The notes: generated by a model not told the origin, from the letters alone. A DNA stretch of 64,000 nt from Syntrophales bacterium (GCA_963662405.2 CAXXKT010000001.1:896001-960000), one strand, 5' to 3'. Numbered from the stretch's first letter, positions 8,112-20,054 are shown. Numbers and translations are program-made.

Positions 8112-9161
8112 TTAGGAAAATTTGTTTTTCAGCGCGTTTGTCGTCTGCTCCGCTTCGGACACCGTCCGTTCTATCAGTTCCTTGACGGTGGGCAGATCCT
8201 GAATCCCGCCGACGTTCTGTCCCACAAACAGGACTCCCTGCTTCATGTCACCTTCGTAGATGGCTTTCATGGATCTCACGGCGCCGACGGCCTGCCGAGC
8301 CTGTGTCCACAAGGAGGCGCCGTCTTCACCGGCCAGCATAGTTTTAAACCCCATGGAGAAGAAGGCCGGATAGGACATATTCAAGACCTTTCGGATCTTC
8401 ATGGCCGCTTGGAAGCGTTCCAAGAGCCCGAACCGATTTTTTTGTACGTCTTCAGCTCCTTTGCTTTTCAAAACACGGCTCCACATGCCGTCGAAAACCG
8501 TGTCATAGAAGGTATCCTGCTCCGTCGCAGCCAGACACAGCTGCTTGAAGTTCTCATGAAGGACACACTCTTTCGTCAACATGAAGCGGGTGCCCATGGA
8601 AACCCCTTCCGCCCCAAGGGCCAAAGCGGCAGCCAAGCCCGGACCGTTATAGATGCCACCGGCGGCAATGACGGGAACCTTAATGGTACTGGCGGCAACG
8701 GGAACGAGAACCATGGAGGTTGCCTTGTCCCCGTGGGCGGCCGCTTCGTGACCTGTCACAACGACGGCATCACATCCCAGCTGGGCCGCCTTGGCGGCAT
8801 GCTTGGCCAGGGCGGTTGTCCCGAGGACCTTACCTCCGTAGGCATGAACTTGATCGATAAACCAGGGCTTGCCCAGAGTATAGTTGAGAATAGGCACCTT
8901 CTCCTCCACGGCCACTTTGATTTTCTCCTGAGAACCGGGACGGAGAATCACGTTTACACCAAAGGGTTTATCCGTCAGTCGTCGGATCTCCCGTATATTT
9001 TCCCGCATCTCATCGGGGGTACACCGGGCGGTGGCAAATACCCCCAATCCACCGGCATTGCTGACCGCCGCGACCAATTGGGTATCCGTAATCCAGTTCA
9101 TTCCTGCTAGCATGATAGGGTATTCAATGTCGAACAGTTCCGTCATTCGTGTTTTTAACAT
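8112..9161 (-). CDS. Nitronate monooxygenase / FabK-like flavoprotein
   Basis: LVAAVSNAGGLG, GHEAAAHG, PVIAAGGI, ALGAEGVSMGTRF. Confidence 0.88.
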   Translation of the reverse strand: MLKTRMTELFDIEYPIMLAGMNWITDTQLVAAVSNAGGLGVFATARCTPDEMRENIREIRRLTDKPFGVNVILRPGSQEKIKVAVEEKVPILNYTLGKPWFIDQVHAYGGKVLGTTALAKHAAKAAQLGCDAVVVTGHEAAAHGDKATSMVLVPVAASTIKVPVIAAGGIYNGPGLAAALALGAEGVSMGTRFMLTKECVLHENFKQLCLAATEQDTFYDTVFDGMWSRVLKSKGAEDVQKNRFGLLERFQAAMKIRKVLNMSYPAFFSMGFKTMLAGEDGASLWTQARQAVGAVRSMKAIYEGDMKQGVLFVGQNVGGIQDLPTVKELIERTVSEAEQTTNALKNKFS

Positions 9162-9257
9162 CTTTTTCTTCTTCTCCTCACTCCTTCAATTTTATTTGCA
9201 CATCCGGATGAATTCCACTGTTTTGAGGGTCAGCATGAGCACCGCCATGGACAGATG

Positions 9258-10115
9258 CTACTTGAAAGAACGCTCCTTCCACCAAGGAAAGAAGGGGGGC
9301 ATATCAGTGCTCAGCTTCTCGGGGAATTGAGGCGGCCGCTTCTCCATAAAGGATGTTACGCCCTCCTGGGCATCCGGAGATTTGCCGGTATAATACATGC
9401 CCAGAGAATCCACCTTGTGGGCCTGCATGGGGTGATCCTCCCCCAGCATACGCCACATCATTTGGCGAATGAGTGCAACTGAAACGGCAGATGTGTTGTC
9501 GGCGATTTCCCGGGCTACTTGATTCGCAACGGTTAACAGATCTTCCGATGTGTGAACGCTCCGAATCAGACCGCCTTTCAGGGCCTCATCCGCTGAGAAA
9601 ACCCGTCCTGAAAATGTCCATTCCAGGGCCTGGTTGATGCCGACGATGCGGGGTAAAAACCAGCTCGAGCAGGCTTCAGATAAGATCCCGCGGCGGGCAA
9701 AAACAAAACCGAAACGGGCATTGTCTGAAGAGATACGGATATCCATGGGCAATGTCATTGTTGCCCCGACGCCTACCGCCGGGCCGTTGATGGCGGCAAT
9801 GACCGGTTTGAGGCATTCGAAGATGCGCAGCGTCACGAGACCGCCCCCGTCACGATGTGCCGCAGCGCCGGCATGATCCTCCCGCGATGTAAAATCGAAG
9901 GTACTGCCGGCGGGGGCAAGATCGGAGCCGGCACAGAAGGCCCGTCCGGCACCGGTAATAATGACGACCCGAACGTCGTCATCCGCATCCGCCCTGCCAA
10001 AAGCGTCGATGAGTTCATTTCTCATGGTTGTTGTGAAGGCATTGAGCCGGTCGGGGCGATTGAGGGTAATGGTCAAGATTTGATCCTGGACGTCGTAAAG
10101 CAACTGTTCATACAT
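9258..10115 (-). CDS. Enoyl-CoA hydratase/isomerase (crotonase)
   Basis: ITLNRPDRLNAF, GAGRAFCAGSD, KPVIAAINGPAVGVG. Confidence 0.92.
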   Translation of the reverse strand: MYEQLLYDVQDQILTITLNRPDRLNAFTTTMRNELIDAFGRADADDDVRVVIITGAGRAFCAGSDLAPAGSTFDFTSREDHAGAAAHRDGGGLVTLRIFECLKPVIAAINGPAVGVGATMTLPMDIRISSDNARFGFVFARRGILSEACSSWFLPRIVGINQALEWTFSGRVFSADEALKGGLIRSVHTSEDLLTVANQVAREIADNTSAVSVALIRQMMWRMLGEDHPMQAHKVDSLGMYYTGKSPDAQEGVTSFMEKRPPQFPEKLSTDMPPFFPWWKERSFK

Positions 10116-10329
10116 TTTTTTACACTCCTTGAAAATGGGTTAAGAAATAGAGATCAATCGAACAAACAGTATCACTACATAGGGAAAAAGGTCGCTGCCG
10201 GACTCATGGATAGGCAGCTCATCCAAGCATTGTTACAGAGGTAAAATAACAAAGAGGTCACCGATGAAATAGGCGGATACAATCATCGTAACACGTTGAA
10301 ATTCGATAGTGGTAGGGTATGAATGCACG

Positions 10330-10700
10330 AAACCATACGATGCTCCCCGCTTCTTGCAATGCGTAAAAAACGTATGCACCATACGTCATACATCACAGAA
10401 AAAACGGTCTCGCTCCTGTCGCAAAGGGATTAATGGGGGCAAACCACCGGAACCGTTTCCAGAAGGACGTGCCGGAAGAGTTCGTCTCCATTGATCACTC
10501 AAAGATTTCCAAGAATCTAAGCTGTTTGTTTAAAATCAAAGAGCAGCACGTTGTGGCCGTCCGTGATGATTACCTCAGACGAGCTTACGGGGAAATCAAA
10601 CATCCATACACGGTCGCACAGACCACGGACGAACGGAGAGATTGAAGCCTTCAGACGCGTATTGAAACGGGAAACCTTCTTCCCATATTCCTTCTCATTT
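10330..10700 (+). mobile_element. Degenerate IS481-like DDE transposase remnant
   Basis: Fragments in two frames: RFQKDVPEEFVSIDHSK...VAVRDDYLRRAYGEI and HTRSHRPRTNGEIEAFRRVLKRE; these resemble the IS481 motifs PGELxHID / DDxSRxAYAE and TRPYxPQTNGKxERF. Boundaries approximate. Confidence 0.65.
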
Positions 10701-11065
10701 GTTCCTTACTATCTTTTCAATCAGTCCTCGGTCATTGCCTGCAAGACAGCACCACGGTTATTACCCGCATCTCTCAACCTTGGAGCGAATCCCTTTTCGT
10801 CCCCTTGGCAATGATGGATTTCTGATATAGGAGCTTGATATATATTGCAAGAGAAAAAGAGGTCCCTCGGGAGCTATAGTCTACAGGAGCAGACAGGGCG
10901 TGATGTCTTGCTTGTGTGATACCCCGTCCTTTTCTGACGGGACGATTCCCCCTTTTTTGCTTTTTTGCACCGGGATCACCACACCCTCCGCCGTTCAAAC
11001 GAAGGGTACCCATCCTCCTTTTTGTCAAAGGGGAACGGGAACGTTCCTCCGGGTTTCCGCCGATC

Positions 11066-11572
11066 TTACAGCCCCTCTTCCTTGTACTTCAGGGCGGCGG
11101 CCCAGTATCCCTCGATGTCCTCCTTGAGTCGGTGGATCTGCTCGTCGGTCACCTCCCCCCGGATGGTGGCGGGAGTGCCGACGACAAAAGAGCGCGGGGG
11201 AATGATCGTGTCCGGCGTGACGAGGCAGCCCGCCCCGATGATGCACGAATCGCCGATCACGGCCCGGTCGAGGACGGTGGCGCCACTTCCGATGAGGACG
11301 TTGTTTCCGATCTTCCCGCAGTGAACAACGGCGCCGTGCCCCACGATGATATAGTCGCCCATGACAAGGGGGGTGCCGCAGTGGACCACGCAGTTGTCTT
11401 CGAGGTGGACGTACTTGCCGATCGTCACCGGGGCGTAGTCGCCCCGGATGACCGCCCCCGGCCAGACGGATGAGTGACCGCCGATCTCGACGTTTCCCAC
11501 GACGTACGCGGCCTCACTGATAAAGGCCGGTTCTCCTATCCGCGGCGCCTTTCCCCCGAAGATCCTGATCAT
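11066..11572 (-). CDS. Gamma carbonic anhydrase family protein (YrdA/CaiE-like)
   Basis: Hexapeptide repeats, WPGAVIRGD, three His ligands (VVHC, VGHGAVVH). Confidence 0.92.
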   Translation of the reverse strand: MIRIFGGKAPRIGEPAFISEAAYVVGNVEIGGHSSVWPGAVIRGDYAPVTIGKYVHLEDNCVVHCGTPLVMGDYIIVGHGAVVHCGKIGNNVLIGSGATVLDRAVIGDSCIIGAGCLVTPDTIIPPRSFVVGTPATIRGEVTDEQIHRLKEDIEGYWAAALKYKEEGL

Positions 11573-11611
11573 ATTGTTTTCCTTTGGTTATTGTCTGAAC
11601 AGTACCGGGGG

Positions 11612-12607
11612 TCAGGCCGGGACGAAATCGGCGGCCCGGGCCTCCACCAGCCGCATGGCCTCCGTGGGACAGGTGACGGTGCACACGCCGCAGCCCAGAC
11701 ACTTTTCCTCGTCTACTATTGCCAGGTCGTCATCATCAATGGTGATGGCGTCGAAGAAACACCGGTCGACACAGGCCTCACAGCCCGTGCACAGATCGTG
11801 GTCAACGACGGCCTTGAAGCGGCTGGGGGCGACCCATTTCTTCGGCCCGTTCATAACTGACCAGTTCAGGCAACAGTCCCGGCAGCAGTTGCAGATGACG
11901 TGCCCCACTACCTGACGGTTGTCGGCGACATGCACGAGTCCCTCTTCCTCGCACATCTTCAGGATGTCGACGGCCTCTTTCTTTGACAGGGGCCTCCCCG
12001 TCCCCCGTTCTATGTTGTACTCAGCGGCACGATCCACCTGCATGCAGACCTCCAGCGGTTTTCCGCAGGCACCGTCGATGACGCGGCAGGAGCAGTTGGT
12101 AACGCTCAGGATCTTTGCATCCTCAATAATTTTGATCACATCATCATAGGCGAGTATCTGCGATTCCGGTTCGACACTCTCGTTGACCGGTATCACCCGC
12201 ATGATGGAGCCGGGAAGCATCTCCATGATCTTTCCACCGTATTCCGGCCATTCCGTCTTCATGTACTCTTTCCAGAGTTCCAGGATGTCCTTCGATATGC
12301 CGGGGGTCAGAGAGGTGGAGTCGTGCATCTGCGGGACGCTCTTCACGCGATAGTATTTGATCTCCTCACCCTTCGTCGATTTGAAAATGAGTCCCCGCTG
12401 GAAGAGCGAATCCATCATGGTGGCGATCGTGTCAGGTGAAAGACCCGTCTTGCCGGCAAGCTCCCCCACCGTCGCCGGCGGCGCCGCCGCGAGGAGGACC
12501 TTCGCCTCATCGCCGTTGACGAGCGCTTCGAATATTCGGGGCATCAGGGGAGAATTCCCCGCACCAATCCCTTCGGCCAATTGCCTGCACAGTTCCCTAT
12601 ACGCCAT
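11612..12607 (-). CDS. Cys-rich protein with N-terminal wHTH-like region and C-terminal 2x[4Fe-4S] ferredoxin (paralog 1)
   Basis: NCSCR, CGKPLEVC, GLVH, ICNCCRDCC, CTGCEACVDRC, CLGCGVCTVTCP. Confidence 0.88.
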   Translation of the reverse strand: MAYRELCRQLAEGIGAGNSPLMPRIFEALVNGDEAKVLLAAAPPATVGELAGKTGLSPDTIATMMDSLFQRGLIFKSTKGEEIKYYRVKSVPQMHDSTSLTPGISKDILELWKEYMKTEWPEYGGKIMEMLPGSIMRVIPVNESVEPESQILAYDDVIKIIEDAKILSVTNCSCRVIDGACGKPLEVCMQVDRAAEYNIERGTGRPLSKKEAVDILKMCEEEGLVHVADNRQVVGHVICNCCRDCCLNWSVMNGPKKWVAPSRFKAVVDHDLCTGCEACVDRCFFDAITIDDDDLAIVDEEKCLGCGVCTVTCPTEAMRLVEARAADFVPA

Positions 12608-12825
12608 TTATGTTCCCCCCTTCATGGTCTGATACAACGAGTATCGAAAAAAACGAGAGGCATGTCAAGGGTAATAGGTTGAAAGAAGGCCGGATCGCAC
12701 CGGTTGACCCCACACACAACAAGTAAAATCTTGAAATATTCCCTCCATGATATAGGATAACTATCGAGTGAAGCACCTGCCGGCTATCCGGCGGCAGGCC
12801 GAAAAGAAAAAGGGTCAGAGATCAC

Positions 12826-13176
12826 ATGCACGAGCTTCCCATTACCGAGAGTATCCTGCGAGTCGTCCTGAGACACGCAGAGAGTCAGAACGTCCGCAGG
12901 GTGGTAACCATCCGCCTGCAGATCGGCAGGCTCAGCGATCTGGAAGACGAATGGATTCAGCGGTATTTCGATTACCTGAGCAAGGGGACCATCGCCGAAG
13001 GGGCACGGCTGGAGATCGAGCGGACACCTATTGTGATACAGTGCGGCTCCTGCGGCACCTCCTACGAGACGGAGACGGGGCGGGCGGATGCCCTGATCTG
13101 CCCCGACTGCGGGGAGAGGGGCGGCACCCTCCTCTCCGGGAGAGAATACCATATCAAGGAGATGGAGGTACAATAA
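12826..13176 (+). CDS. hypA: Nickel metallochaperone HypA
   Basis: N-terminal MHE Ni site; CGSC and CPDC Zn pairs; SGRE near the C-terminus. Confidence 0.95.
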   Translation: MHELPITESILRVVLRHAESQNVRRVVTIRLQIGRLSDLEDEWIQRYFDYLSKGTIAEGARLEIERTPIVIQCGSCGTSYETETGRADALICPDCGERGGTLLSGREYHIKEMEVQ

Positions 13177-13865
13177 TGGGGGATGAGATACGGCTCATTG
13201 AGGTGAAGGAGGAGATCCTCTCCGATAACATCAGACTGGCCGACGAGGTCAGGGAGAACTTCCGGGAAAAGAAGACGATGCTCCTCAATCTCATGTCTTC
13301 ACCGGGGTCGGGGAAAACAAGTCTCATTCTCCGCACGATCGAGGGACTGAAGGATGCGGTGCGGCTGGGCGTTATCGAGGCGGATATCGATTCCACGGTC
13401 GATGCGGAGAAGGTCGCCGCCGTGGGTGTACCCGCCATCCAGCTCAGGACGGGGGGATTCTGTCACCTCGATGCGGCCATGGTCACCAAGGGAATCGAAG
13501 CCATGGAGGCGGAGGCACTCGACCTGATCATCATCGAAAATGTGGGGAACCTGGTCTGTCCCGCCGAATTCGACACGGGGGCCCACAAAAACGTGATGAT
13601 CCTGAGTGTCCCCGAGGGGGACGACAAGCCCCTCAAGTACCCCCTGATGTTTTCCATATGCGACCTCCTCCTGGTCAATAAAATCGATTACCTTGCAGTG
13701 AGCGACTTCGACATGGCCGCCCTGCGAAAGCGGGTGACGGCCCTGAATCCCCGGATCACCATCCTGGAGGTATCCTGCACGACCGGGGCGGGTATCGAGG
13801 AATGGATTGACTGGCTGAAGGGTGAGGTGAAGACGTTCGCCGGGATCACCGCTGGAGCACCGTGA
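13176..13865 (+). CDS. hypB: Nickel-insertion GTPase HypB
   Basis: TAATG coupling to hypA; SSPGSGKT, GFCHLDA, ENVGNLVCPAEF, EGDDKPLKYP, NKID. Confidence 0.95.
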   Translation: MGDEIRLIEVKEEILSDNIRLADEVRENFREKKTMLLNLMSSPGSGKTSLILRTIEGLKDAVRLGVIEADIDSTVDAEKVAAVGVPAIQLRTGGFCHLDAAMVTKGIEAMEAEALDLIIIENVGNLVCPAEFDTGAHKNVMILSVPEGDDKPLKYPLMFSICDLLLVNKIDYLAVSDFDMAALRKRVTALNPRITILEVSCTTGAGIEEWIDWLKGEVKTFAGITAGAP

Positions 13866-14928
13866 GGAAGGATTCGAGCTTTCCCTTCTCTTCGGCCATC
13901 TTCATTGTCAGCTCCTGGGCGGTGGCAAAGACCTCCGGGGGCTCTTCCCGTTTCACCAGTTCGATGGCATCGACGGGACAGGCCGAGACACACAGGCCGC
14001 ACCCGATACACCGTTCGGGGATCAGGACCGCCACGTCGTCGAGAATCTCGATCGCTTTCATGGGACAGCGCTCATCGGCACAGATCCCGCACCCCGTGCA
14101 CCCGTCGGTATCGATTTGTGCCTCATAGGTGCTGGTGGCGAAGGCGTGGGGGTTATTCTGCTCGGTCCTGCCGCGCAGGATTGAACAGCAACAGGGGCAG
14201 CAGTTGCAGATAAGATTCGCCCTGTCCGCACTGTTGTTGCTGGTATGGACAAGCCCCGCCTCTTCGCAGAGATCGAGGACCCGCATCGCTTCTTCCTTGC
14301 TGATTTCCCGGGAAAATCCCCGTTCCACGAGGAAGCGGCCCATGTCGCCGAAGGACAGGCAGACCTCCAGGGGGGCATCGCACCTTTTGAGACTGACCCG
14401 GCAGGCGCAGTTGGTGAGCGCCCGGTAGTCCGTTTCTCCGATCAGGCGCGCGACCTCTTCATAGGGGTGGACATGTGTCTTGGAAGTAAGGGCTTTTTCG
14501 ACGGGGATGACCCGCATCGCGGGGGAAGGGTTGCCGCTGAATGCCTCTCCCAGGGCCTCCCGGTGATACTCCTCCCAGAGACTCCCCAGCTTCTCCTGCA
14601 TCGGACCGGTCTCACCCCGCATGAAGGGAAACTCAAAGAGCCCCGGTATGGTCGGCAGGAGACCGTATGCACGCATCCCTTTTTTATCACGGGAGAAGAT
14701 GACACCGCGATCGCACAAGGTCTCGAGCATATCCCTTACCGTATCGGCGGGGAGATCCGCCGCTTCCGCTATCATTTCAGCTGTCTTGGGCCTGAAGCTC
14801 ATGCGGACTGCCACGGACGCCTCTTCGGGGGTGTAGAGGATTTTCAGTATCTCGTCAAAGGTTCCCGTTTGGGGGGCTCCCGATGGGTGTGTGTCAAGAA
14901 TTTGCCTGAGTTCCTCATAGACGTTCAT
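13846..14928 (-). CDS. Cys-rich wHTH / 2x[4Fe-4S] protein (paralog 2)
   Basis: NCACR, CDAPLEVC, GLVH, ICNCCPCCC, CTGCGIC, CIGCGLCVSACP; 20-bp convergent overlap with hypB. Confidence 0.88.
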   Translation of the reverse strand: MNVYEELRQILDTHPSGAPQTGTFDEILKILYTPEEASVAVRMSFRPKTAEMIAEAADLPADTVRDMLETLCDRGVIFSRDKKGMRAYGLLPTIPGLFEFPFMRGETGPMQEKLGSLWEEYHREALGEAFSGNPSPAMRVIPVEKALTSKTHVHPYEEVARLIGETDYRALTNCACRVSLKRCDAPLEVCLSFGDMGRFLVERGFSREISKEEAMRVLDLCEEAGLVHTSNNSADRANLICNCCPCCCSILRGRTEQNNPHAFATSTYEAQIDTDGCTGCGICADERCPMKAIEILDDVAVLIPERCIGCGLCVSACPVDAIELVKREEPPEVFATAQELTMKMAEEKGKLESFLTVLQR

Positions 14929-14967
14929 TGCGTGACTCCTGTCGGAAAGACTTGTAGTGCCGAACCG

Positions 14968-15864
14968 TTACGCCAGGCAGTAGATACTATCCTCCTGCCG
15001 GATGGTCCCCCGGTCCTCAAGGCGCCGGAGGTGCTTGTCCATCATTATCCGTTCGCTCAGTTCCAATTCCCAGGCTCCGCCGGAGACGCTCCGCCCCCCG
15101 TATATGATCCCTTCTGCGGTGATCTCGTCCAGGTTCTTGGGCCCTGACGCCAGGAGGGCCAGCAACCGCTCCTCTCTGGTGTAGATGACGTCCAGGTACC
15201 GTTGAATATGTATCGGGTCGGCTTCGATGACCCCCTCTCTCCCGTGGGCCACCAGATATGTGTCCACATCAATTGCCGCCACCCGCTGCAGTGATGCGAT
15301 CGTGTCATCGATGCTGGACCCTTTATCGCCGTAGTAGGGACCGAATTTCACCAGATCCAGATCCGCCAGATAGATGACCCGCTCTTCGGGAAAGTGAAAT
15401 GAGAGGTGCCCCGGGCTGTGACCGGGGGTGTGCAGGACCCGGGCTCGGGTCTGCCCGAAGATGAGGAGATCCCCATCGTCCAGCAACCGGTCCGGTTCCC
15501 GGGGTTGATACCGAACGACCTCGGCAAAAAATGCGCCCCAGGCTGCCTGAGTTTTTTCGTCGACACACCCGGATTCATAAAACTGATCGTAGAAGGCTTC
15601 GATATCTCTGAACCCGGCCGCTTCGAGCCTGGGGACCCAGAGATCGGCGTCCGGAAAACGGGAATTGAGGAGGAAGTGGTCCTCGTGACAATGGCTGTTG
15701 ATGATGACCTGGATCGGACGCTGCCGGTGAATTGTCAGGAGTTTCTTCTCATCGCTCGCCGGATCGATAACGGCCCGGATCTCATCGTCGATAAAAACGG
15801 AATGACAGGTGGGATACTTTCCCCCACGGATGAACCGGATCTTGCCTGCCTCAAAATCAAACAT
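14968..15864 (-). CDS. MBL-fold metallo-hydrolase
   Basis: SHCHEDH, TPGHSPGH, VAHG; start placed at ATG 15864 after GGAG. Confidence 0.88.
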   Translation of the reverse strand: MFDFEAGKIRFIRGGKYPTCHSVFIDDEIRAVIDPASDEKKLLTIHRQRPIQVIINSHCHEDHFLLNSRFPDADLWVPRLEAAGFRDIEAFYDQFYESGCVDEKTQAAWGAFFAEVVRYQPREPDRLLDDGDLLIFGQTRARVLHTPGHSPGHLSFHFPEERVIYLADLDLVKFGPYYGDKGSSIDDTIASLQRVAAIDVDTYLVAHGREGVIEADPIHIQRYLDVIYTREERLLALLASGPKNLDEITAEGIIYGGRSVSGGAWELELSERIMMDKHLRRLEDRGTIRQEDSIYCLA

Positions 15865-16014
15865 CGTGTGCTCCATCTTCCCCGACAGAGAGTACGGATG
15901 GCTGCCTCCCCGTATCGGTAAACCATCAAGAGGGTTTTGGTTTTGATAATGAGATATAGGACGGACACCTTTGTCTGTCAACGGAATAATGACCGCACAC
16001 GACGTGTGGAAACG

Positions 16015-17100
16015 CTACTTGAATTCGGAGAAGTCGATCCCCCGCATGCGACCCCGTTCCTCAAACCAGTCATCCTCCGTGAGGGGGGGCGTCACGATTT
16101 CGTCCGGGGTCCGGCGGACCAGGCGAACGGCATCCACGGGGCAGGTGCTGATACACAGGCCGCAGCCGATACACCGCTCCGGCACGATTGTATACCTATT
16201 GTGCTCTTCGACGATGGCGTCCACCTGGCACCGTTCCTCGGCGCACAGGCCGCAGGCGGTGCACGCTTCACTATTAATCTCGGCGTAATAATGGGAGTTG
16301 ATGACGAGGGAAGCCGGAATGCCCAGTTCGGTGATGGAGCGCAGGATACCGCAGCAGCACTTGCAACAGTTGCAGATGTAGATCTGGCCCACCTGGACGT
16401 TCATCGTGAGGTGAACGAGGGCCGCCTCTTCCGCGTTTTTCAAGAGATCGTACGCCTCTTCCTTTGAGATGACCCGACCGGTGGGAGAATCGTCGAACAC
16501 GCCGGGGACGGGAGCGATCGCGAGACAAACCTCGGTCGGCCTGTCGCAGGGATACCCCAGAAGCCCCCGCTCCTTCTTGCAGATACATTCGCTGACACGG
16601 AACGATTGGTTGGCGTCGATAAGCGACGAGACCTTCTCATAGGGGAGGGCCTCCTGATGGGCGGGGATGGTCTCTTCCACGGCGAGGGTCTGCATGAGCT
16701 GCGGCTTCTGCGCGGTGAATTGCCGGGAATAGGCGGGATGATATGCCTCGCTCAGTTCGGCGAGTTCCCGGTCGAGGCGACCCAATTGAAACTCGTAGAT
16801 CCCGAAGACCCAGGGGAGCATCCGGAAAAACCGGGTGCCCCCCAGATCGAGCATGAAGACCTGCCCCTTCTCCGCCATGGTGGCCAGCATCTCTTCCAAC
16901 CCTTCCACCGGAAGAGCTGTCCGCTCGGCGATCTGCGCGGCGGTCTCGAAGGTCAGACGGAGCCGGCAGAAGAGATCGGCCTCTTCGGGGGTAAAGATCT
17001 TTTTCAGGATCCGGATCTCGACGCCGCTCTCCGTTGCCGGGAATCCGTTGGGGAGGGTATCCAGGACCTCCGCCAGCCTGTGGTAGAATTCGTCATGCAC
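16015..17100 (-). CDS. Cys-rich wHTH / 2x[4Fe-4S] protein (paralog 3)
   Basis: ECICK, CDRPTEVC, ALVH, ICNCCKCCC, CTACGLC, CIGCGLCISTCP. Confidence 0.88.
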   Translation of the reverse strand: MHDEFYHRLAEVLDTLPNGFPATESGVEIRILKKIFTPEEADLFCRLRLTFETAAQIAERTALPVEGLEEMLATMAEKGQVFMLDLGGTRFFRMLPWVFGIYEFQLGRLDRELAELSEAYHPAYSRQFTAQKPQLMQTLAVEETIPAHQEALPYEKVSSLIDANQSFRVSECICKKERGLLGYPCDRPTEVCLAIAPVPGVFDDSPTGRVISKEEAYDLLKNAEEAALVHLTMNVQVGQIYICNCCKCCCGILRSITELGIPASLVINSHYYAEINSEACTACGLCAEERCQVDAIVEEHNRYTIVPERCIGCGLCISTCPVDAVRLVRRTPDEIVTPPLTEDDWFEERGRMRGIDFSEFK

Positions 17101-17111
17101 GAGATCGTCCT

Positions 17112-18716
17112 TTACCCCAGTTTCCGCAGATTTCTGCGCAGTGTCTTTCCGAGGGCGCTCTTGGGAAGCTCGTCCATGAACTGGATCGCCTTCGGCCTCT
17201 TGTAGGTGGGGAGGTGCTCCCGGCAGAAACCCATGATGTCTTCCTCGCAGACCGCGCCGGGGGTCTTGAGGGTGACGAATGCCTTGACCACCTCGCCGTA
17301 CACGGGATCGGGGATACCGACCACCCCTGCCTCCAGGACCTCCGGGTGCATATGGAGGATATTTTCTATCTCCTTCGGGTAGATGTTCTCTCCCCCCCGG
17401 ATGATGAGGTCCTTCTTCCGGTCCGTGACGTAGAGGTAGTCGTCTTCGTCCATGTACCCCACATCGCCGGTATGGAGCCAGCCGTCCCGCAGCGCCTCGG
17501 CCGTCTCCTTCGGCTTGTTCCAGTACCCCTTCATGACACCGGGGCCCTTGATGACGATCTCGCCGATCTCTCCCCGGGGGACTTGCCGGTCGTCTTCATC
17601 GAATATCCTGATCGTGTTGCACTTCTGGTAACACTTGCCGATGGAGCCGTACTTGGGTGGGCGCCTCCCGGCCACGTTACCACAGTTGACGGTCGTCGCC
17701 TCGCTGAGGCCGTACCCCTCCCAGATATCGATCCCGTACCGCTCCTGCCACTGGCGGGCTACCTCCATCGGCATGGGGGCCGAGCCGCAGATACAGGTCT
17801 GCAGGGAGCTCAGGTCGTATTGAGCGGCGGCGGGGTGGTTCAGGAGCTGGATATACATGGTCGGGACACCGCGAAAATCCGTGACCCTGAATTGTTCGAT
17901 GCAGCGCATCGCCTCTTCGGCGTCCCATCGGTCGATAACAACAAGCTTCCCCCCCGTCAAAAACTCGAGACTCAGGGCGAAGACCCCGTAGCCGTGGAAG
18001 AGGGGAAGGGTGATGAGGGAGACACGGTCCCGGCTAACGCCGTACACCGCCATCTCCCGATCCCCGATCTTCCCCCGCCGTGCGTCTTCCTCCAGGACCG
18101 CTCCCCGCGCCGTGACCCCCCACGCATCGAGGAGGACCTGGTCGTAGTACCCCGTCACATGGGTGTACCAGTTGTAGTGTGTCAGCATCACCCCCTTGGG
18201 GTTCCCCGTGGTGCCGGCGGTGTAGATCATCACGGCCGTGTCGTCGTTGTCCGTGTCCTCCGGGGCCAGCGCGTCCGACTGTCCCTCCAGGATGGCGTCA
18301 AAGGAGAGGGCGTCTTCGGGAATTGCCTCCCCGGTCAGGATGATGTGCCGCAGCGCTTCCGCCCCTGCCCGGGCCTGATTGATGGTATCGATGTAGTCGG
18401 CGGTGCTGATGAGGGCGACCAGACCTGCGTCCTTGTACAGATAGGCAAGGTCACTTACGCGGAGCGACGGGTTGATGGGAACTATGATCGCCCCGATCTT
18501 GAAGGTGGCGAAGAACGCCTGCAACAGTTGCGGGCAATTGAGCATCTGAACACCGACCCGGTCTTCCCTCTTGACCCCCAGATCCTTCAGGGCATTCCCC
18601 AGCCTGTTCGCGATCCGGTTCATCTCGACGTTTGTGTGCCACCGCCCTCCGAACCAGACAAAATCATATTCACCAAACCTGGTGATGTTGTCGTCAGCCA
18701 GTCTCCCGATATTCAT
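17112..18716 (-). CDS. AMP-forming acyl-CoA ligase (long-chain fatty acid--CoA ligase family)
   Basis: YTAGTTGNPKG, EGYGLSE, WLHTGD, DRKKDLIIRGGENIYP, PKSALGK. Confidence 0.93.
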   Translation of the reverse strand: MNIGRLADDNITRFGEYDFVWFGGRWHTNVEMNRIANRLGNALKDLGVKREDRVGVQMLNCPQLLQAFFATFKIGAIIVPINPSLRVSDLAYLYKDAGLVALISTADYIDTINQARAGAEALRHIILTGEAIPEDALSFDAILEGQSDALAPEDTDNDDTAVMIYTAGTTGNPKGVMLTHYNWYTHVTGYYDQVLLDAWGVTARGAVLEEDARRGKIGDREMAVYGVSRDRVSLITLPLFHGYGVFALSLEFLTGGKLVVIDRWDAEEAMRCIEQFRVTDFRGVPTMYIQLLNHPAAAQYDLSSLQTCICGSAPMPMEVARQWQERYGIDIWEGYGLSEATTVNCGNVAGRRPPKYGSIGKCYQKCNTIRIFDEDDRQVPRGEIGEIVIKGPGVMKGYWNKPKETAEALRDGWLHTGDVGYMDEDDYLYVTDRKKDLIIRGGENIYPKEIENILHMHPEVLEAGVVGIPDPVYGEVVKAFVTLKTPGAVCEEDIMGFCREHLPTYKRPKAIQFMDELPKSALGKTLRRNLRKLG

Positions 18717-18889
18717 TATCGTGTTTCCTTCCTCGTTCTGTAAAATCCATGGTGAATACCGCTACCCGTCACACGGGATATATGCTTTTCACATCGTCTC
18801 CACACCCGTGCACCCACTCATGGATGAACCAGGATATCGTCCCGGGAATCTAACCCCGAGCATATAACGGGAGAACCACGTTGCGTTCC

Positions 18890-19100
18890 TCGGGACACTT
18901 TCACCGTCGGTCCGGTTGAGAAGGGCGTTCTGGAAAGGCGGGAGCAAAAGAAACCGATGATATCCGAGAGACAGAAGCACCTCATCACCAAAGCAGGGGT
19001 CAAAGAGGAGATCAGGAATCGGGGCCGAGGTCTCGCGCCGGATAGCGATATCCGCCCCCCTGTGACATCGCCCTTATCACCCTGGTCAATTCATCCGGTT
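18890..19100 (+). pseudogene. Decayed partial copy of the downstream GPP34-like gene
   Basis: 18921-18954 matches 19728-19761 at 33/34 nt, and similarity continues to about 19100; no intact full-length ORF. Confidence 0.8.
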
Positions 19101-19406
19101 GAATTTTTCGATCAGGTCCAGAGCGGATTGCGGGACGTCCCCCATCGTCACCTCTTCCTTTCAGTTCAATCCGGCAGCGATGCCCGTGAGAAGCTTCATA
19201 GATCAGTCGCAAACAATCATAATACAATCGGTATGATTTGGCAATTGCATTGTGCCCCGGCGATGTGGTGTGAAACGGGCACGGGGTGGAAAAGCCGAAC
19301 GGTCAAGAGGTACATGAGGAGGATGGAATATGGAGAACACCTTTGATTTTTTCAAATATAATTGTTTTGTCATATCTGTTTCTGATATGGTGGCCGCCGT
19401 GAGGTG

Positions 19407-20054
19407 ATGATGCTGACATTTGCCGAGGAATTGCTATTATTGGCTCTGGATGATGAAACGGGGAGCTTCCATATATCGTCGACCGCAAACTTTCGTCTTG
19501 CCCTGGCCGGGTCAATCCTCATGGAACTGGCGTTCATGGACAGAATCGACACCGATCTGAAAAAACTGGTGGTGGTAGATGGGACTTCCACCGGTACCCC
19601 CATCTTCGATAAGGCCCTTGCAATGCTCAAAGAGTCCCCCCACCCGCGATCCACGGCCCACTGGGTGGACACGATCAGCCAGGAATTCAGCGATCTCCGT
19701 GAACTCTTCATCGGCAGTCTGGTGAAAAAGGGCGTTCTGGAAAGGAGGGAGCAAAAGAAACTGGGGATATTCAAGAAGCAGAGATATTTCATCACCGAAT
19801 CCGGGGTCAAAACGGAGATCCGGGAAAGGGTCCGGCATCTTGTACTGAATGGCGATATCCCCGACCCCCGCGACATTGTCCTCATCACTCTGGTCAAGTC
19901 ATCCGATCTGATCGATCACATCTTCGCAAAGGAAGAAAGGGAAACGGCTGAGAAGCGCGTGTATCATCTCTCCCAGATGGACCTGATCGGACAGGCCGTC
20001 ACCAAGGCGATTATCAGGGATATCATTTCGCCCGGCGCGTACATGTCATATTAA
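19407..20054 (+). CDS. GPP34 / GOLPH3-Vps74 family protein
   Basis: LTFAEELLLLALDDETG, LAGSILMELA, LVKKGVL...KLGIF...RY, PDPRDIVLITLV. Confidence 0.85.
   Translation: MMLTFAEELLLLALDDETGSFHISSTANFRLALAGSILMELAFMDRIDTDLKKLVVVDGTSTGTPIFDKALAMLKESPHPRSTAHWVDTISQEFSDLRELFIGSLVKKGVLERREQKKLGIFKKQRYFITESGVKTEIRERVRHLVLNGDIPDPRDIVLITLVKSSDLIDHIFAKEERETAEKRVYHLSQMDLIGQAVTKAIIRDIISPGAYMSY

Follow-up and report, generated by a model that had tools for sequence, protein, structure and literature searches.

A stretch of 64,000 nucleotides from the genome of a Syntrophales bacterium (GCA_963662405.2, CAXXKT010000001.1:896001-960000; 'the window' denotes this whole stretch, with positions counted from its first letter) carries a hypA-hypB pair, here hypA2-hypB2, among three paralogous cysteine-rich Fe-S proteins named P1, P2 and P3 (Table 1). 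Comparison of this locus across genomes indicates that the pair is very likely dedicated, in genetic terms, to the family represented by P1-P3. The core of the family probably holds nickel, and we lean, if modestly, towards reading the stand-alone family as a HypAB-matured Ni-Fe-S redox enzyme, its substrate being left open. The genetic link is well supported, and a HypAB-loaded nickel site is already in print for a fused form of the family; the new part is the HypAB link of the stand-alone form, which is contrary to the one published count in the available text of PMC10134865.

Association of hypA-hypB with a cysteine-rich Fe-S family

The best 80 of 374 genomic relatives of HypB2 (72-85% identity, labelled mostly Smithella, Syntrophaceae or unclassified Deltaproteobacteria) served as a sample of hypB loci, which we searched for marker proteins and, by profile, for the family. 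In 64 of the 80 a family gene was detected, every time within 1.5 kb of hypA-hypB, and hypC, D, E, F or a hydrogenase in none of these closest loci, which bears out the cross-genome linkage without hypCDEF proposed in an earlier note made from the window sequence alone. Family genes lie on the same strand upstream (34), on the opposite strand downstream (22), on the same strand downstream (15) or divergently (9). The family gene of L031 was detected with an earlier profile, and three further loci retain a C-terminal remnant only. A second, divergent hypA occurs in 11 loci, directly behind another family subtype in 10. The only other recurrent neighbors are a TetR regulator (38/80; best match AcuR, under cut-off) and a membrane protein that is rich in His and weakly matches DsbD_2 and RcnA-type models (18/80); an Old Yellow Enzyme (OYE) flavoenzyme is found in 8/80.

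The host genome (G000; 3.80 Mb, 100% complete) has a single [NiFe]-hydrogenase large subunit and a single HypD, at C1:105332-109815, about 800 kb from the window pair. They belong to a cluster at C1:103946-113906 of small subunit, large subunit, cytochrome-like gene, protease, hypA, hypC, hypD, hypB, hypF and hypE, in which the large subunit and HypD were found by search and the remaining genes identified by eye from translations. Because this cluster has its own HypA and HypB, to which the window proteins are only 38% and 48% identical respectively, hypA2-hypB2 is a second pair and not the sole HypAB copy of a hydrogenase-bearing genome. The earlier description of the system as hydrogenase-free holds for the window but fails for the genome. 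Searches of G000 for carbon monoxide dehydrogenase (CODH)/Hcp, acetyl-CoA synthase (ACS), urease and a complex I/group-4-type large subunit found none. The genome also encodes one LarA and one LarC; LarA was considered as a HypAB client and rejected, since it has its own LarC.

At the scale of the class, we sampled 81 genomes of at least 90% completeness. The family occurs in 69 of them, with up to 35 copies per genome. A score gap separates the HypB matches into two sets, 49 sequences from 48 genomes (at least 58% identity and 287 bits), termed the HypB2 type, and 35 sequences of at most 53% identity and 252 bits. By coordinates, 32 of the 35 low-identity HypBs adjoin hypD, and the remaining three have as neighbors hypC together with a hydrogenase or hypF; no family gene was found in 12 low-identity HypB loci that were fetched. 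Among the high-identity HypBs, 2 of 49 have hypD at a distance of 8 kb or less. The family is found in every one of the 48 genomes with the HypB2 type, and none of the 12 family-less genomes has this type (Fisher p 5e-6, a value overstated because kin genomes are not independent). HypD is absent in 21 of the 48, so that hypA or hypB in Syntrophales genomes and transcriptomes need not report a hydrogenase. The median number of family copies is 5.5 in genomes with the HypB2 type and 1 in those without, and 40 of the 43 class genomes with at least three copies have it. The IsrA-type fusion discussed below is present in at least seven of the 48 genomes, which leaves the stand-alone form as the sole family client seen in 41, among the matches listed. 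The 35 family matches of G006 are in a 3.0-Mb genome; G117, G113 and G149 have 26, 24 and 21.

HypB phylogeny is consistent with this division. Trees were built with FastTree and midpoint-rooted, from HypB sets of 80 and 115 sequences; loci were subsampled (every fourth or tenth of the first 80 loci, every third or tenth IsrA-type locus), and the HypB trees cover two phyla and the metagenome set. In this sampling, HypB2, the IsrA-linked HypBs and the second-phylum HypBs form one clade of 54 (support 0.976), a single member of which has hypF within 3 kb, while the other hydrogenase-adjacent HypBs all fall outside it. The separation of this HypB from hydrogenase HypBs, which the earlier note had named as a check, is recovered. 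Fourteen HypB positions are common to HypB2 and the IsrA-linked HypBs and differ from the class hydrogenase HypBs. On the HypA side, the LSDLEDEWIQRYFDY helix of HypA2 is conserved; the second HypA paralog has an echo of this helix and the class hydrogenase HypAs lack it, which makes it a candidate client-recognition surface.

The association extends beyond the class. In a phylum sample of 121 genomes, G000 excluded, hypB and a family gene are immediate neighbors in at least 8 of the 50 genomes that have both, with 0.23 expected from copy number and genome size. Five of these eight HypBs are 39-51% identical to HypB2, outside the group of at least 58%, and the tree places three with HypBs of hydrogenase type, a sign of recruitment on more than one occasion. 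In a second phylum (that of G081, labelled Bacillota; 151 genomes), the family occurs in 38 genomes; the eight best HypBs (at least 56%) are all in family-positive genomes and seven of them adjoin a family gene.

Two groups of loci show further arrangements. L276 (G336:C8:8000-27999), from the second phylum, reads family gene, hypA, family gene, hypA, hypB, with two more family genes, an isr-like layout made of stand-alone forms only. L242, L243 and L244 (G087, G121 and G152, of one taxonomic family) carry hypA-hypB pairs; G087 and G121 are without a HypD or family match, and G152 is on neither match list. These three pairs may serve another unrecognised nickel client.

Relation to IsrA

In Acetobacterium wieringae ISORED-2, the isr operon encodes IsrA (a putative isoprene reductase of 'clade 9'), two HypA, HypB and a 350-amino-acid '4Fe-4S ferredoxin' (PMC10134865). 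We used as a stand-in for IsrA a protein of 896 amino acids encoded between hypB and hypA at L108, chosen by length (896 versus 901 amino acids), domains and Cys positions. Besides the family core it contains a DPD-II cluster domain and a domain of the pyridine nucleotide-disulphide oxidoreductase type. Its CxC motifs lie at 184/186 and 258/260 and its ferredoxin motifs at 293-303 and 835-845; for IsrA, CxC at 180/182 and 254/256 and ferredoxin motifs at 289-300 and 848-877 have been described (Kronen et al. 2023, PMC10134865). The family profile matches the L108 core with a probability of 99.7 (E 3e-26), and P1-P3 align to the IsrA-type fusion at 29-32% identity (P1, 32% over 194 amino acids; P2, 29% over 288). 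P2 aligns to L108 residues 34-319, and its second ferredoxin motif to residues 820-855. From this alignment we infer that IsrA may be a stand-alone protein whose ferredoxin domain is parted into two halves by an NfnB/GltD-type NAD(P)H-FAD module; because IsrA looks like the stand-alone protein plus an inserted module, the stand-alone protein is the probable catalytic module. An 844-amino-acid fusion of the core to a GltD-type module at L111 2770-5301 (G016) is placed by the family tree apart from the IsrA clade, a position that suggests a second, independent fusion.

Of 80 metagenome loci with the IsrA-type fusion, 62 have an adjacent hypB, 58 an adjacent hypA and 70 at least one of the two, and none has hypCDEF. 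These counts agree with the published figures of 73% and 56% of 988 homologues (PMC10134865). In the same work the Cys6 'cluster V' of IsrA was proposed as a HypAB-loaded nickel site, and biochemical proof was called for. The system therefore cannot be called undescribed, as the earlier note had it: the same Cys-rich domain, fused in IsrA, was proposed as such a site in 2023 (PMC10134865). The 350-residue protein of the isr operon is described as aligning to the first 270 residues of IsrA. The architecture of the VUZ27135.1 type, compared by description as given in the available text of that paper, would fit P1-P3, with one cluster predicted there versus two motifs in P1-P3. For strain Y, Jin et al. 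describe reduction of isoprene as well as butadiene, and not of ethene, propene or fumarate (PMC9765523). Two preprints of 2026 on Pelotomaculum describe induction of hypA/hypB by isoprene or repeat the IsrA homology, with no biochemistry in their available text. Our literature search, with most subscription journals outside it, found no report of a link between the stand-alone form and HypAB or of a purified member.

Sequence and predicted structure of the family

P1, P2 and P3 are 28-37% identical to one another. Alignment confirms the motifs previously noted as common to the three, namely CxC, CxxPxEVC, LVH, CNCCxxCC and a C-terminal 2x[4Fe-4S] end; the winged helix-turn-helix (wHTH)-type match is weak. 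Pfam names the C-terminal ferredoxin domain, with MarR, TrmB and HTH_24 matches all under cut-off and no flavin domain. Nine Cys outside the ferredoxin domain are invariant in P1-P3 (P2 positions 174, 176, 183, 190, 241, 243, 244, 247 and 248), and a tenth core Cys (P2 246) is present in P2 and P3, correcting the earlier figure of about eight. In P2 order, the nine are kept in 146, 147, 147, 147, 147, 147, 147, 133 and 145 of 147 diverse homologues, and the tenth in 122. The His of LVH, which had been put forward as a ligand, is found in 87 of the 147 and was rejected as a conserved ligand. Six Cys (174, 176, 190, 241, 243 and 248) remain invariant in 36 cores that include the most divergent forms, and match the IsrA Cys6 site in number and CxC pattern (site as given in PMC10134865).

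The AlphaFold2 model of P2 is confident (pLDDT 91, pTM 0.88) and runs from a helical start through a winged-helix-like segment and a long helix to a Cys-bearing alpha/beta core, followed by the ferredoxin domain and two closing helices. A profile of the core collects 3,172 representatives at 50% clustering (E 0.001). Against NCBIfam, the P2 core has no match at E 0.1, and the 36 cores gave scattered weak matches only; PDB sequence searches with the core returned ferredoxins or spurious PPR repeats only, and hits in the ESM Atlas were to Fer4 clusters or to clusters without a name, all below 0.9. Fold searches with the full P2 model matched through the ferredoxin domain only; for the core alone (residues 92-270, pLDDT 87), Foldseek returned nothing at E 0.001 and VIA reached at best a Z of 3.1, to unrelated chains among 48,161. 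CODH and ACS are absent among the sequence and fold matches listed for the core. The core domain is thus without a match to a library family or solved fold, a new fold not being thereby proven. A predicted complex of HypA2 with P2, each supplied as an alignment, scored 0.01 against a mark of 0.32, which counts neither way.

G000 holds six family matches: P1-P3, a frameshifted copy, an intact divergent copy and a fragment; no IsrA-type fusion was found in this genome. The fourth paralog (C1:2467560-2468617, + strand) has a frameshift near 2467900 in the assembly, and its orthologues are intact beside hypA-hypB in L064, L070, L080, L082 and L083. The fifth (C3:118529-119884, + strand) is intact and divergent, with a C-terminal extension. 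Its subtype is large, never stands beside hyp genes here and occurs in genomes without a HypB match; judged from sequence, it could serve as a natural nickel-independent control. The fragment at C1:839109-839478 is a decayed partial duplicate of P1 joined to a gamma-carbonic-anhydrase fragment (67% identical to the window protein); a probable tRNA stretch lies about 600 bp away and an NMO-family gene at 1 kb. Shorter divergent members without the wHTH region occur at L065 2063-2935, L075 9786-12049, L077 1405-3549 and L013 5014-5775; those of L075 and L077 form a tandem pair behind the second hypA, one with the motif CYCDDxxC.

Proposed mechanism and alternative explanations

The hypA2-hypB2 pair would be kept for the IsrA-type Cys-rich family, separate from the hydrogenase. 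HypB2 would bind Ni2+ and hand it to HypA2 with GTP hydrolysis, in line with the GTP-dependent transfer from HypB to HypA, and delivery by HypA thereafter, summarised in PMC10134865. HypA2 would then load nickel into the six-Cys site of the P2 core to give a Ni-Fe-S site without Fe(CN)2CO; P1, P3 and the distant copies would probably be loaded in trans by the same pair. HypCDEF build the Fe(CN)2CO unit, and because the proposed site would be without this ligand they would not be needed. The remaining three or four core Cys could bind a further metal, and the C-terminal 2x[4Fe-4S] domain could feed in low-potential electrons from ferredoxin or a partner flavoprotein. The likeliest chemistry would be C=C reduction in a conjugated diene or enoyl compound, which we suggest tentatively and with some doubt, by analogy to IsrA and from the OYE- and AcuR-like neighbors.

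More speculative, and doubtful as it stands, is the proposal of a new nickel enzyme class of which the stand-alone proteins would be the smallest catalytic unit: a large family, its core fold unmatched among solved structures, with a nine-Cys Ni-Fe-S site, a dedicated HypAB lineage to load it and the ability to reduce unactivated or conjugated C=C bonds with electrons of ferredoxin level. If true, the family, with up to 35 copies in a genome, would be an unrecognised electron sink for fatty-acid-, alkane- and aromatic-degrading syntrophs, and IsrA would be one derived, NAD(P)H-wired member of it.

Several observations weigh against a dedicated pair and a nickel-holding family. In 14 of the 81 class genomes, four of them 100% complete, the family is present without a HypB match at E 1e-30. 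Most family copies in those genomes keep the Cys motifs, and they comprise the fifth-paralog-like subtype, a further subtype and orthologues of hyp-linked types. The HypB2 type is the only HypB found in five genomes in which HypD is present (G039, G048, G069, G116 and G177), where it may also serve a hydrogenase, and it lies near hypD-hypF in G013 and G063. At 16 of 27 more distant HypB2-type loci no family gene lies in the fetched stretch. The phylum sample has the family in 58 genomes versus the HypB2 type in 7, all family-positive, and in the second phylum, where the 40 best-scoring family loci were fetched, a hyp gene lies within 6 kb of 9 of 9 fusions and, among the 31 stand-alone loci, of 2. 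Viewed from the family, the association is far weaker, and most stand-alone copies are remote from hypAB. For the stand-alone protein, Kronen et al. report no association with HypA or HypB, in the available text of PMC10134865. The literature found reports the metal content of no family member, and the substrate assignment has analogy as its sole basis. Not every family member needs HypA2B2, then, and the pair may not be exclusive.

The full Cys set in genomes without HypB, the five genomes with a sole HypB and the distant loci that lack the family would all suit a family that holds Fe-S clusters only, or Fe-S and Zn, with hypA-hypB as a hydrogenase spare or nickel buffer placed by inherited order or shared regulation; two Fe-S clusters could also fill nine or ten Cys without nickel. 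We consider this unlikely in view of the 21 of 48 HypB2-type genomes that have no HypD. The link moreover turns up with several family subtypes and in a second phylum, in four geometries and with HypB lineages that are unrelated to each other; in 10 loci a second HypA paralog stands behind another subtype, and none of the 12 family-less genomes keeps the HypB2 type.

A less likely alternative accepts nickel transfer from HypA2 and takes the stand-alone proteins as scaffolds, metal stores or electron partners for a flavoenzyme or other client. P1-P3 are indeed without a flavin or NAD(P)H domain, OYE-type genes stand in an operon with IsrA-type genes in L108, L282 and L283 besides the loci counted above, and the isr operon has both the fusion and the stand-alone 350-residue homologue (PMC10134865). 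However, only the TetR regulator and the membrane protein recur as neighbors, and 39 of 104 listed neighbors of family-less hypB loci, scanned with Pfam at E 1e-12, included no known nickel enzyme and no common client. The number of diverged paralogs in a genome, up to 35, would also fit a substrate-diversified enzyme better. The idea that P1-P3 act on hypA-hypB as transcription factors that sense metal or redox state (a wHTH joined to a Cys sensor), which the divergent position of P1 (a geometry found in 9/80), the sub-cut-off MarR/TrmB/HTH_24 matches and a helix-helix-wing pattern at residues 34-90 of the model would suit, is very improbable given a near-neutral wHTH (median net charge +1; presumed recognition helix -1), wHTH-less forms directly upstream of hypA in L074 and L031, the same N-terminus fused into a flavoenzyme and a separate TetR regulator in 38 loci.

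To our knowledge, only a handful of nickel enzyme classes are known, and HypA and HypB are routinely taken as hydrogenase markers. If the link between hypA2-hypB2 and the stand-alone family has the meaning that it seems to have, there is a second HypAB lineage that serves to mature the Ni-Fe-S site of a widespread family without a solved core fold. A 40-kDa stand-alone protein beside its own chaperones is also much easier to test than a flavoenzyme of 100 kDa that carries five clusters.

The locus and its neighboring genes

Gene arrangement at the locus is as claimed in the earlier note, including the coupling of hypA and hypB (the hypA stop and hypB start share one base, TAATG), the divergent P1 and the 20-bp overlap of hypB with the convergent P2. 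HypA2 and HypB2 score 91.6 bits against TIGR00100 (cut-off 88.1) and 253.8 bits against TIGR00073 (cut-off 121.2), with their nickel and zinc motifs intact. Promoter and repeat scans of the locus gave consensus-level sites only and no operator. Positions 10000-19500 are tiled by contigs of run X1 with zero letter differences, one contig covering 12271-19500; X1 is possibly the source sample, in which case this agreement is not independent.

Table 1. Features of the hypA2-hypB2 locus, in window positions
Feature	Position	Strand	Remarks
Gamma-carbonic-anhydrase-like hexapeptide protein (gamma-CA)	11066-11572	-	39 bp after P1
P1, stand-alone IsrA-type Cys-rich Fe-S protein, 331 aa	11612-12607	-	wHTH-like N-terminus, nine-Cys core, 2x[4Fe-4S]; divergent from hypA
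P1-hypA divergent intergenic region, 218 bp	12608-12825	.	one sigma-70-like site per strand (consensus matches only)
hypA2 (hypA), predicted nickel metallochaperone	12826-13176	+	MHE start, D38, two CxxC, clade-specific LSDLEDEWIQRYFDY helix
hypB2 (hypB), G-domain-only HypB GTPase	13176-13865	+	CH...C nickel residues; groups with IsrA-linked HypBs
P2, stand-alone paralog, 360 aa	13846-14928	-	ten core Cys; commonest type upstream of hypA-hypB in relatives
Metallo-beta-lactamase-fold (MBL) hydrolase	14968-15864	-	
P3, third stand-alone paralog, 361 aa	16015-17100	-	
Acyl-CoA ligase	17112-18716	-	11 bp upstream of P3

The closest relative, L005, from a separate genome, has the order P1/hypA/hypB/P2/MBL/P3/ligase with the His-rich membrane protein between hypB and P2; this membrane protein has no match in G000. 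The MBL gene is probably co-transcribed with P3 and P2 at the window locus. The ligase, MBL and gamma-CA were rejected as functional partners, being found in 9 (8 of these merely 25-33% identical), 3 and 0 of the 80 hypB loci, and G000 alone has 25 acyl-CoA ligase matches; the chemistry on a CoA-thioester or carboxylate that had been read from these neighbors is accordingly not supported. Downstream of gamma-CA, positions 8112-10115 (- strand) encode an enoyl-CoA hydratase and an NMO/FabK-family flavoenzyme, and the NMO-like gene cluster recurs in 5 of the 80 related loci. A short open reading frame at 10551-10814 (+ strand), with a weak match to an IS481-family transposase (NF033577, E 8e-4, 28 residues), probably represents what is left of an insertion sequence, bordering the locus on the left. 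Beyond the ligase, positions 19404-20054 (+ strand) encode a GPP34/GOLPH3-family protein (PF05719, E 4e-51).

Comparison with known systems

The proposed Cys-held nickel next to an Fe-S cluster is like the C-cluster of CODH and the A-cluster of ACS. CODH/ACS use CooC/AcsF and are not known to use HypAB. Unlike the present family, neither enzyme was found in G000, and neither is listed among the sequence or fold matches of the family core. AcsF is cited as the ACS maturation factor in PMC10134865, where Kronen et al. also compare the Cys6 site of IsrA to the A-cluster.

HypA2 and HypB2 resemble the HypA and HypB of [NiFe]-hydrogenases in the MHE start, the two CxxC, the CH...C G-domain and in passing the NCBIfam cut-offs. 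They differ from hypABCDEF systems in that no hypCDEF or hydrogenase gene accompanies them at any of the 80 closest loci, in the separate HypB clade and in the distinct HypA helix. In Helicobacter pylori, HypA and HypB are shared between hydrogenase and urease, a precedent for serving a non-hydrogenase nickel enzyme. The pair is here duplicated rather than shared, and no urease was found in G000.

The closest known system is the isr operon, from which the window locus differs in having three stand-alone proteins of 331-361 amino acids without an FAD/NAD(P)H module, IsrA being a fusion of about 900 amino acids. The host has a hydrogenase with its own hyp set, and the putative isoprene link is that of isr. 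Association of the stand-alone form with HypAB is the rule here, whereas none is reported in the available text of PMC10134865. The two systems are alike in a Cys-rich N-terminal domain with two CxC, in HypA/HypB without hypCDEF, and in HypBs that fall in one clade.

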